Shown here in pieces: positions 28,876 through 29,658 of a stretch of 64,000 nt of DNA (its first letter is position 1; every line of letters starts with the position of its first letter). This DNA comes from an uncultured Gammaproteobacteria bacterium. GTDB lineage: Bacteria; Patescibacteriota; Microgenomatia; UBA8517. Under the pieces are notes generated by a model, which had not been told where the DNA came from, ran no database searches, and was given only the letters and a program-made list of their open reading frames with translations. The stretch is taken from NCBI GenBank assembly GCA_964635715.1, contig CAZWNZ010000001.1, positions 344,274-408,273 of the forward strand, in the 5' to 3' direction. Position numbers and translations under genes: made by a program.

Positions 28876-29658
28876 ATGAAAAAAATACCGAAAATAAAAG
28901 CGTTTTTTGTGTTTTGTTTTATATTTTTAGTATTTTTATTGGCAGCAAGGGATTCTATAGCACAAGACGCGGCAGGAAGTGGTGTTGCCACATCAACATC
29001 GGTTTCAGGTAATTACAAGGACGGTGATTTAATTTGTGTGGACAAAGATAATATTAATGTTGCTTGTAATAAAGAATATGATTCAAATATGATTGGTGTG
29101 GTAGTGGAAAATCCAAGTGTTTCTTTTACCAGCAGTTCCGGAGGAGTACCGGTTGTTTCTTTGGGAAATGTTTACGCAAATGTTAGTAGTAAAAACGGAA
29201 TTATTCAAAAAGGAGATTTTATAACCAGTTCCAAAACGACAGGTGTTGGCCAGTTGGCTAAAAAAAGCGGATACATTTTAGGAGTAGCACTTGAAAATTA
29301 CGCGGATGAAAATCCTGATTCAATTGGCAAGATTCCCATAGCCGTAAATATTCGACCTGCAGTCCTTAGTGGAGGAGCCGGTAATAATTTGCTCGAACTG
29401 ATTAAGGAAGGTGTCTCCGGGGCGTTTGAAAGCCCATTGTCTGCGTTGAGGTATTTTGTAGCCGGAGTGTTAGTTGTTGTTAGTTTTGTTTTTGGTGTTT
29501 TACATTTTGGCAAGATGGCCAAAAGCGGAGTGGAGGCAATTGGGCGTAATCCACTGGCGGCAAAAACGATACAGTTTGGAATACTACTTAATGTTTTGAT
29601 AGCAATTGTTATTATGGCTGTGGGTTTGGGAATCGCCTATCTTGTTTTGGTTATTTAA
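28876..29658 (+). CDS. Secreted protein with C-terminal two-helix hairpin resembling an F-ATPase c subunit but lacking the conserved carboxylate
   Basis: Signal-like N-terminus (...AARDSIAQ) and a ~170-aa ectodomain. The C-terminus [51 protein letters not shown] aligns by eye with E. coli c-subunit (...[44 protein letters not shown]). The D61-equivalent is Ile here. Confidence 0.5.

Follow-up and report, generated by a model that had tools for sequence, protein, structure and literature searches.

A carboxylate-free homologue of ATP synthase subunit c, joined to a phage decoration-like domain, in the F-type ATPase operons of Microgenomates

Introduction

The Type 2 (gliding, G1) and Type 3 (MIB-MIP) F1-like X0 ATPases of mycoplasmas comprise an alpha/beta/gamma/epsilon set detached from ion translocation. 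They are encoded in seven-gene clusters without subunit a, a canonical c, b or delta, the clusters include a 12-helix membrane protein and a small cytoplasmic protein, and their X0 proteins have no reported similarity to subunit c. Both types have been proposed to pass ATP-derived force to surface proteins (PMC3369863, PMC12994834). Here we describe an F-type ATPase operon with a different kind of departure from the canonical form, located in a 64,000-nucleotide stretch of DNA (the window; contig CAZWNZ010000001.1 of assembly GCA_964635715.1, positions 344,274 to 408,273, G+C ~38%) from a member of the Microgenomatia. The open reading frame (ORF) at 28876-29658 on the + strand of the window encodes a 260-amino-acid (aa) protein, given the working name cX, in which a membrane hairpin homologous to subunit c is preceded by an extracytoplasmic domain; the genes for alpha, gamma, beta and epsilon follow it.

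The literature that we searched contains only passing mentions of this system, from 2013 and 2026, and neither the loss of the ion-binding carboxylate nor the fusion of an ectodomain is described there. Kantor et al. 2013 (PMC3812714) reported that in WWE3 and OP11 genomes the genes occupying the a, b and c positions 'lack significant homology'; the 'putative c subunit', they observed, is similar to a membrane protein found in further ATPase operons of OP11/WWE3, and they did not settle on a function for it. Troman et al. 2026 (bioRxiv 10.64898/2026.03.03.709456) observed ATP synthase genes and a tail-fibre-like gene beside the pam pilus operon in Saccharimonadia and Microgenomatia, and read the co-localisation as coupling to ATP production. 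Whether the ATP synthase of Patescibacteria runs forward or backward is itself debated in review (PMC11665869).

Relationship to ATP synthase subunit c

In a preliminary description of the window, made from the sequence alone, the C-terminal hairpin of cX was likened to subunit c. Direct scans of the window protein gave no usable match: Pfam reported no ATP-synt_C (PF00137) at E ≤ 1, and the NCBIfam subunit-C model stayed below threshold (E = 0.38; 10.8 bits against a cut-off of 122). Profile methods were therefore needed. A profile of the full-length cX family, searched against 177,635 sequences of the Protein Data Bank (PDB), returned seven matches, all of them ATP synthase c subunits (best E = 0.013). 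When the profile was restricted to the hairpin, c subunits made up the top seven matches (E 0.0013-0.11) and eight of the ten overall, and their alignments were ungapped across the loop between the helices, with the loop in register. HH-suite comparison with eight canonical c subunits, whose sequences were entered by hand, gave P = 1.7e-5 and a score of 30.4. The alignment took in both helices, with 70 columns and no gap; scores were 13.5 for a reversed target and 20.7 for the best of 30 column shuffles. Searching in the other direction, an unfiltered hidden Markov model (HMM) of canonical c placed 18 cX ORFs on top among 4132 ORFs from 86 loci (best E = 3e-4). With Foldseek, the hairpin could be superposed on c-rings from chloroplast, Bacillus, Chloroflexus and E. 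coli (66-69 residues, 16-28% identity, 1.7-2.4 Å). Weak Pfam ATP-synt_C matches were present in 16 of 45 cX relatives (best E = 0.0078), and several family members are labelled COG 'subunit c/K' by the Joint Genome Institute.

The cX hairpin is genuinely homologous to F-ATPase subunit c, though diverged very far from it, and the kinship is detectable at the profile level; on this point the profile searches in both directions, the controlled HH-suite comparison and Foldseek all agree with the initial likeness. That a generic hydrophobic hairpin without kinship to subunit c should have produced these results by chance is very improbable: although each E-value by itself is modest (the best one against the PDB being 0.0013) and the window protein taken alone has no Pfam ATP-synt_C match, the PDB matches are c subunits in loop register (all of those to the full-length profile), the shuffled and reversed controls score far below the real comparison, the reciprocal search ranks cX ORFs first, and cX holds the exact place of atpE in its operon. 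We take this combined evidence to have effectively refuted chance resemblance.

Protein architecture and loss of the ion-binding carboxylate

The features of cX and its surroundings are listed in Table 1. The N-terminus of the protein, with a basic MKKIPKIK stretch, a hydrophobic core, and small residues at positions -3 and -1, has the character of a Sec-type signal peptide, and the A-Q junction at the predicted cleavage site recurs across the family alignment. In an AlphaFold2 model calculated with 45 relatives (mean predicted local distance difference test score 88), residues ~35-162 form an all-beta domain, which is followed by a short helix (172-183) and then by two long ones (187-224 and 226-259). 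Since K213, K216, R224 and K230 all fall in the segment between the helices, the positive-inside rule predicts that the loop is cytoplasmic and that the beta domain and the C-terminus are outside, the same membrane orientation as in subunit c. The secreted domain with a cleavable-looking signal that the preliminary description placed ahead of the hairpin is recovered here as a Sec-like peptide and a beta domain of ~130 aa. The family is sizeable: at 90% identity it comprises at least 168 clusters, and a profile search of 1.84 billion cluster representatives gave 724 at 50% identity. The nearest relatives of the window protein are found in Candidatus Woesebacteria and other Microgenomates.

To our knowledge, all characterised F/V/A rotor rings have a membrane-embedded carboxylate that is paired with an arginine of subunit a. 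In subunit c this residue lies 18 positions past the loop proline (E. coli D61, which is Pro43+18; PS3 E56; a glutamate in Chloroflexus), and the residue at that place in cX, according to the profile register, is I244 (Pro226+18). Position 244 is occupied by I (68), V (19), L (13), G (7) or A (6) in 120 relatives, and by L, I, V, F, A, T, G, M, S or C in 141 representatives of the clusters at 50% identity; it is never D or E in either set. Both helices were inspected, and an essential membrane carboxylate was found neither in helix 2 nor moved to helix 1. Helix 1 contains no acidic residue in any of the 120 relatives, helix 2 contains no D or E past position 233 in the same set, and among the 141 cluster representatives an acidic residue occurs within helix 2 in three, each time at another site. 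The alignment of D61 with isoleucine that was first proposed by eye is thus upheld, as is the reported absence of the GxGxGxG packing motif from helix 1, where a stripe of small residues (A196/S203/G207/G212) is found instead. Two matches from the same alignment, 'QF' and 'AVGLG', are coincidental, because they lie two residues out of the loop-based register; forcing them to match would place D61 on I242, an isoleucine as well.

Much of the remainder of the hairpin is strongly conserved. The R-Q/N-P loop of E. coli subunit c binds gamma and epsilon; its counterpart in cX, G-R-N-P, is present in 120 of 120 sequences and aligns ungapped in the profile comparisons, so that the loop match noted at the outset holds. 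Other conserved residues are R192-Y193 at the outer end of helix 1, F211-G212, E220, and, near-invariant in helix 2, Q233, N239, I246, G250 and Y255. N239 is retained in 114 of the 120 relatives, and its site is N or H in 131 of the 141 cluster representatives. Mean column identity reaches 64% in the hairpin as compared to 44% for the whole protein and, judging from the alignments, cX is under strong purifying selection. Carboxylate-free c-type hairpins are tolerated in some rotor rings, as in those of the multi-hairpin V/A-type proteolipids and of Acetobacterium woodii c1. As far as is known, such rings always keep some hairpins with the carboxylate, whereas the sole c-like gene of the cX operon has none.

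Operon context

The gap between cX and alpha in the window is 10 nucleotides (nt), no terminator-like site was found on the + strand between the two genes, and gamma, beta and epsilon follow with overlapping or abutting stop and start codons. Pfam and NCBIfam models identify each of these four F1 genes. The alpha and beta translations keep Walker A, the GER catalytic motif and the SVTRVG arginine, and from its sequence the F1 catalytic head looks intact. In each of the 67 related loci where epsilon was matched, the subunit ends 0-23 residues past the beta-sandwich, leaving no C-terminal inhibitory helices. In the sub-clade of the window, which also includes loci L006, L009 and L011, alpha is 429-434 aa long and its C-terminus is ~60 aa shorter than in other Microgenomates. 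The Walker A motif of E. coli alpha is near residue 169. In Microgenomates alphas it is near residue 155, in loci with and without b and delta alike; a window-specific loss of the delta-binding N-terminus of alpha was considered and rejected on this ground.

A scan of one genome per species in GTDB located cX relatives in 346 species. Eighty cX loci were fetched, their ORFs were classed by phmmer, and operon structure was counted in the 74 non-redundant loci with enough downstream sequence. The order cX-b-delta-alpha-gamma-beta-epsilon was found in 51 of these, where 'b' was called by architecture (an N-terminal membrane helix, then a long helix) and position alone; the delta of locus L004 exceeds the Pfam OSCP threshold. 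Only one of b and delta was detected in seven loci, neither in 15, and one locus had no alpha within 10 kb. In ten of the 15 loci with neither gene, the window included, the distance from cX to alpha is below 50 nt. HMMs of b, delta and canonical c had no match in the full 64-kb window. cX occupies the atpE slot of an F-type operon in ~74 related genomes, and the comparison of gene orders indicates that cX-alpha-gamma-beta-epsilon, as in the window, is a derived minority state in a Woesebacteria clade that lost b and delta. A gene for 2,3-bisphosphoglycerate-independent phosphoglycerate mutase (iPGM, gpmI) lies between cX and b in ~26 loci (e.g. L004 4303-5991, L043, L031, L028); L019 has cX and iPGM, with no alpha within 10 kb downstream.

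No ORF for subunit a or a canonical c was found within ±10 kb of cX in the 80 loci, the search for subunit a being an insensitive, local one that combined phmmer with E. coli AtpB (a query entered by hand) and a hydropathy screen for at least four membrane helices; the 64-kb window likewise yielded no subunit a. Multi-helix candidates near cX were dismissed as antisense artefacts inside giant fibre genes or as ComEC-, DprA-, ComM- or Fic-like genes.

In summary of the comparison with subunit c (AtpE), cX shares the two-helix hairpin, the cytoplasmic loop (canonically R-Q-P or R-N-P) and the gene place before b-delta-alpha-gamma-beta-epsilon; it differs by having no carboxylate, no GxGxGxG, an extra N-terminal signal and ~130-aa domain (or, in a long variant described below, a helix-turn-helix (HTH) domain and a membrane helix), and no subunit a alongside. 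The mycoplasma ATPases of Types 2 and 3 are, by analogy, the closest functional counterpart, but cX falls outside the definition of their clusters. The window's clade resembles them in lacking a, canonical c, b and delta, whereas most Microgenomates keep b and delta. The 12-helix membrane protein and the small cytoplasmic protein are absent from cX loci (no conserved multi-helix membrane ORF stands beside the cluster in the 80 loci), and cX is clearly similar to subunit c, a likeness not reported for the X0 proteins. Models of MSC_0618/0619 or MMOB1660/1670 gave 339, 251, 374 and 361 bits against the window alpha and beta, with cut-offs of 600, 520, 850 and 570, and generic F1 models scored higher.

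The extracytoplasmic domain and the divergent giant protein

Foldseek matched the cX ectodomain to phage decoration or cement proteins (Pam3, Sf11, Borrelia BB1, TW1) and to the base of the phi29 head-fibre protein gp8.5, at probability 1.0 and with E values between 4e-5 and 1e-2; the cyanophage Pam3 structure 8hdt_G (E = 4.3e-5) and Sf11 (E = 1.1e-4) are among these. In Pfam, weak matches to XM1_gp53_minor_capsid and Phage_cement_2 were present in 20 and 10, respectively, of 45 cX members. Scores remained under the gathering thresholds of PF23982/PF09956 (18.1 bits for the window cX against a cut-off of 27; best family member E = 1.4e-4). cX thus shares a fold with these phage proteins, and only 10-17% identity over the listed matches; they belong to a capsid setting, whereas cX is cellular, is fused to a membrane hairpin, and has two invariant cysteines, whose presence fits an extracellular disulfide.

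A long form of cX, of 390-590 aa, retains the same ectodomain and hairpin, but its signal peptide is replaced by an N-terminal HTH_17-like cytoplasmic domain and a membrane helix. It was observed in P0206, P0213, P0222, P0228, P0246, P0251, P0260 and P0265 (P0246 with two HTH copies by eye) and at L087 7302-9074, where it fills the same operon slot and is followed by b-like, delta-like, alpha and gamma genes. An HTH profile built from the fibre proteins described below had no match in the N-terminal domain of the long variants, and the Pfam HTH_17 matches there are weak.

Upstream of cX, on the opposite strand, the window encodes a giant surface protein. In 58 of 73 loci, the start of a divergent open frame with 600 codons or more lies no further than 1.6 kb from cX; an HTH domain is common to 47 of 56 extracted divergent giant proteins, and Peptidase_S74, the tail-fibre chaperone domain, is present in orthologues of the window protein. 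The ectodomain of cX offers a further connection: an HMM of this domain found it in 11 of 34 giant proteins (at least 700 aa; lowest E 1e-32) that adjoin cX elsewhere, in genomes other than that of the window. The giant protein is a conserved neighbour and a possible partner of cX. Its orthologues include L001 3537-7841 and L003 5877-9950, among others; their layout is as much that of a ToxR-like membrane-tethered regulator as of a fibre.

Table 1. Coordinates in the window of cX, its parts and the adjoining features
Feature	Position	Strand	Basis
cX	28876..29658	+	ORF, ATG start, 260 aa: signal peptide, outside beta domain, c-like hairpin
Predicted signal peptide, cX residues 1-29; predicted cleavage between S-I-A and Q	28876..28962	+	Read from sequence
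Extracytoplasmic beta-rich domain, cX residues ~35-165, ~130 aa, with invariant C54 and C64	28978..29370	+	Foldseek, weak Pfam, alignment
cX membrane helix 1, residues ~187-215	29434..29520	+	AlphaFold2 model and alignment
cX cytoplasmic loop G223-R224-N225-P226, counterpart of the polar loop of subunit c	29542..29553	+	Invariant; translation-checked coordinates
cX membrane helix 2, residues ~232-260	29569..29655	+	AlphaFold2 model and alignment
I244 codon, site of the ion-binding carboxylate of subunit c	29605..29607	+	HMMER and HH-suite register; codon checked
F1 alpha, 429 aa, Walker A present	29668..30957	+	Pfam ATP-synt_ab 3e-62; NCBIfam F0F1 alpha 1.7e-111, under curated cut-off
F1 gamma, 284 aa	30954..31808	+	Pfam ATP-synt 3.9e-17, over gathering score
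F1 beta, 457 aa, GGAGVGKT P-loop and GER catalytic motif	31805..33178	+	NCBIfam atpD 2.5e-130 (435 bits, cut-off 463)
Epsilon, 85 aa, beta-sandwich only	33181..33438	+	Pfam ATP-synt_DE_N 1.6e-9
Giant surface protein, 1598 aa: N-terminal MerR/HTH_17, one membrane helix, fibre-like ectodomain	23945..28741	-	Pfam MerR_1/HTH_17 at residues 24-73
Inverted repeat CCAAAATC-N2-GATTTTGG and tandem GATTTTGG	28785..28821	.	Perfect 8-bp repeat in the 134-bp divergent intergenic region

Proposed function and alternatives

We lean, with some reserve, toward a reading of the cX complex as an F-type ATPase that is unable to translocate ions and that passes ATP-driven rotation or force to an extracellular crown. 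The proposed sequence is as follows: the signal peptide would be cut off, leaving the beta domain outside and the hairpin across the membrane in the orientation of c, with its G-R-N-P loop on the cytoplasmic side. A ring would be built from copies of cX, as it is from c, and its loops would dock the foot of gamma and epsilon beneath an alpha3-beta3-gamma-epsilon head taken to be intact and competent for catalysis. The head would hydrolyse ATP and turn or torque the ring, and the crown of decoration-protein-like domains would deliver mechanical work at the cell surface, possibly to the divergent giant fibre-like protein. In most lineages b and delta would hold alpha3-beta3, and the clade of the window must hold its head some other way. 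The reasoning behind this proposal is that a ring with no ionisable residue in its helices, and no subunit a encoded with the operon, could not carry H+ or Na+, and the complex could therefore be neither a proton pump nor a synthase driven by the proton-motive force. Because no ion would be carried, the energy of ATP would go into rotation or torque of the ring and its crown; an epsilon without inhibitory helices would favour ATP hydrolysis; and since the extracellular crown is the only new output element of the ring, the work is probably mechanical and at the surface. In a more specific and distinctly tentative version, which we consider possible but doubtful, the cX ring is spun by F1 and the crown turns or pulls giant fibre-like host-contact proteins, making the whole a transmembrane, ATP-powered rotary actuator.

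Several observations weigh against the preferred reading. The glycine motif by which canonical rings pack is missing from helix 1, and each membrane helix of cX has one narrow conserved stripe, which a hairpin outside any ring would also fit. The simple rotary model is weakened by the clade of the window itself, since without a b/delta stator rotation there would need some other anchor. The HMM of the cX ectodomain finds no copy in the giant protein next to cX in the window, and the synteny of cX with fibre genes could stem partly from shared ancestry rather than shared function. The absence of subunit a applies to neighbourhoods of ±10 kb and to the 64-kb window.

Some of the same evidence would suit a static structure, in which cX, as a ring or otherwise, tethers the F1 head or serves as a structural protein of the surface, nothing rotates, and the ATPase is cytoplasmic or regulatory. 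The preliminary description had in mind something similar, a c-derived membrane anchor repurposed in an adjacent F1-like system. Its view of the hairpin as c-derived, carboxylate-free and repurposed stands; the gene is not merely adjacent, given that it fills the atpE slot, and anchoring is one reading only. We judge a static anchor or scaffold unlikely, even with the missing stator of the window's clade, the missing glycine motif and the single conserved stripes to recommend it: the rotor parts gamma and epsilon are kept in every locus and b/delta in most, five to seven genes would be a costly price for a passive tether in genomes of ~1 Mb, and the invariant c-type loop fits a rotor ring that binds gamma and epsilon equally well. 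Continued ion coupling, as synthase or pump, by way of an unconventional site (e.g. N239, Q233, or H/Y210) and a subunit a encoded elsewhere, is improbable. Reviews take Patescibacteria to use F-type ATP synthases (PMC11665869), the conservation of N239 within helix 2 invites the idea, and the search for subunit a covered neighbourhoods of ±10 kb and the 64-kb window; but N239 is five residues cytoplasmic of the canonical site, ~74 loci have no subunit a at its usual place in the operon, and neither helix has a membrane carboxylate, unlike the characterised rings.

We find it equally hard to credit an export or assembly machine, with the F1-like head acting as a type III secretion ATPase (FliI/FliJ-like) and a cX ring as the gate or platform at which the giant fibre or nearby pili would be secreted or assembled. 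Genes for giant surface proteins are indeed conserved neighbours, and ATP synthase genes and a tail-fibre-like gene do co-localise with the pam pilus operon in bacteria of the candidate phyla radiation (CPR) (bioRxiv 10.64898/2026.03.03.709456). Alpha and beta also match FliI/SctN models, but F1 models score far above these, and a hetero-hexamer with gamma/epsilon, b and delta is a trait of F-type complexes, not of export ATPases. Moreover, the fibre protein has a membrane helix of its own and cX a Sec signal, and no export-gate proteins are encoded nearby. On our preferred reading, of a force-transmitting ATPase that moves no ions, the complex probably spends ATP on work at the cell surface and not on ion movement.

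Other features of the locus

The inverted repeat CCAAAATC-N2-GATTTTGG (28788-28805), between the giant gene and cX, is, with the tandem GATTTTGG copies, a candidate operator for a nearby HTH protein. A stand-alone MerR/HTH_17 protein of 71-72 aa is encoded 3' of the ATPase cluster in three loci (window 33677-33895 on the + strand, L001 16054-16269, and L005 16940-17158). In L005, three genes of the bAvd/23S_rRNA_IVP family (6094-6462, 10760-11143, 18138-18509) flank the cX and giant surface-protein genes; their presence hints at a diversity-generating retroelement acting on the surface locus. A 1.2-kb AT-rich spacer that runs from the giant gene to cX in L004 (2266-3505) has no ORF of at least 50 aa, and no Rfam match at gathering thresholds.

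A protein of 427-446 aa resembling UppS (undecaprenyl-diphosphate synthase) is syntenic with the ATPase cluster (window 21768-23108 on the + strand, L001 148-1452, L005 15190-16473); Pfam Prenyltransf is matched by the orthologues in L001 and L005, and the window copy, from its translation, apparently has a helical C-terminal extension of ~200 aa. A few kb 3' of the ATPase cluster are conserved genes for a 7TM_transglut membrane protein and then for ATP-grasp (ATPgrasp_ST/RimK-like) proteins (window 35925-40023 on the + strand, L005 17253-20729); of the latter, the window has three and L005 two or more. Upstream in the window, 17404-19980 and 20900-21781 contain mevalonate genes (GHMP kinase, diphosphomevalonate decarboxylase, and an amino-acid-kinase-family member) and a polyprenyl synthetase, adjoined by MreB (14175-15182) and a WecG/TagA glycosyltransferase (15593-16378). 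No pam pilus operon was found near the window's cluster, the neighbours being MreB, WecG, the mevalonate genes, UppS, an ABC transporter, ATP-grasp and ribosomal proteins. Many records of metagenome-assembled genomes with the cX operon (among L012-L084) are titled 'uncultured Gammaproteobacteria', 'Pseudomonadales' or 'Alphaproteobacteria', and one NCBI copy is titled Vitreimonas; these non-Microgenomates titles look like placeholders or mis-assignments.

Implications

Metabolic reconstructions that score Microgenomates as 'ATP synthase present' are probably wrong about the role of the complex, because its rotor subunit cannot bind an ion and no subunit a is encoded alongside it, a matter that touches the 346 species representatives with cX. 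Likewise, the co-location of ATP synthase and tail-fibre genes in CPR bacteria may mean mechanical coupling to the surface rather than metabolic coupling. The cX operon would provide a second, independent and far more tractable case, after the mycoplasma ATPases of Types 2 and 3, of an F1 motor repurposed from ion transport. Here the membrane part is still recognisable as c, and living lineages preserve the successive steps by which the complex was reduced: b and delta are kept in some, both are lost in others, and in others again alpha is truncated too. If the actuator reading is true, cX would belong to a third kind of prokaryotic surface rotary motor, driven by ATP instead of ion-motive force and independent of the F1-like machines of mycoplasmas.

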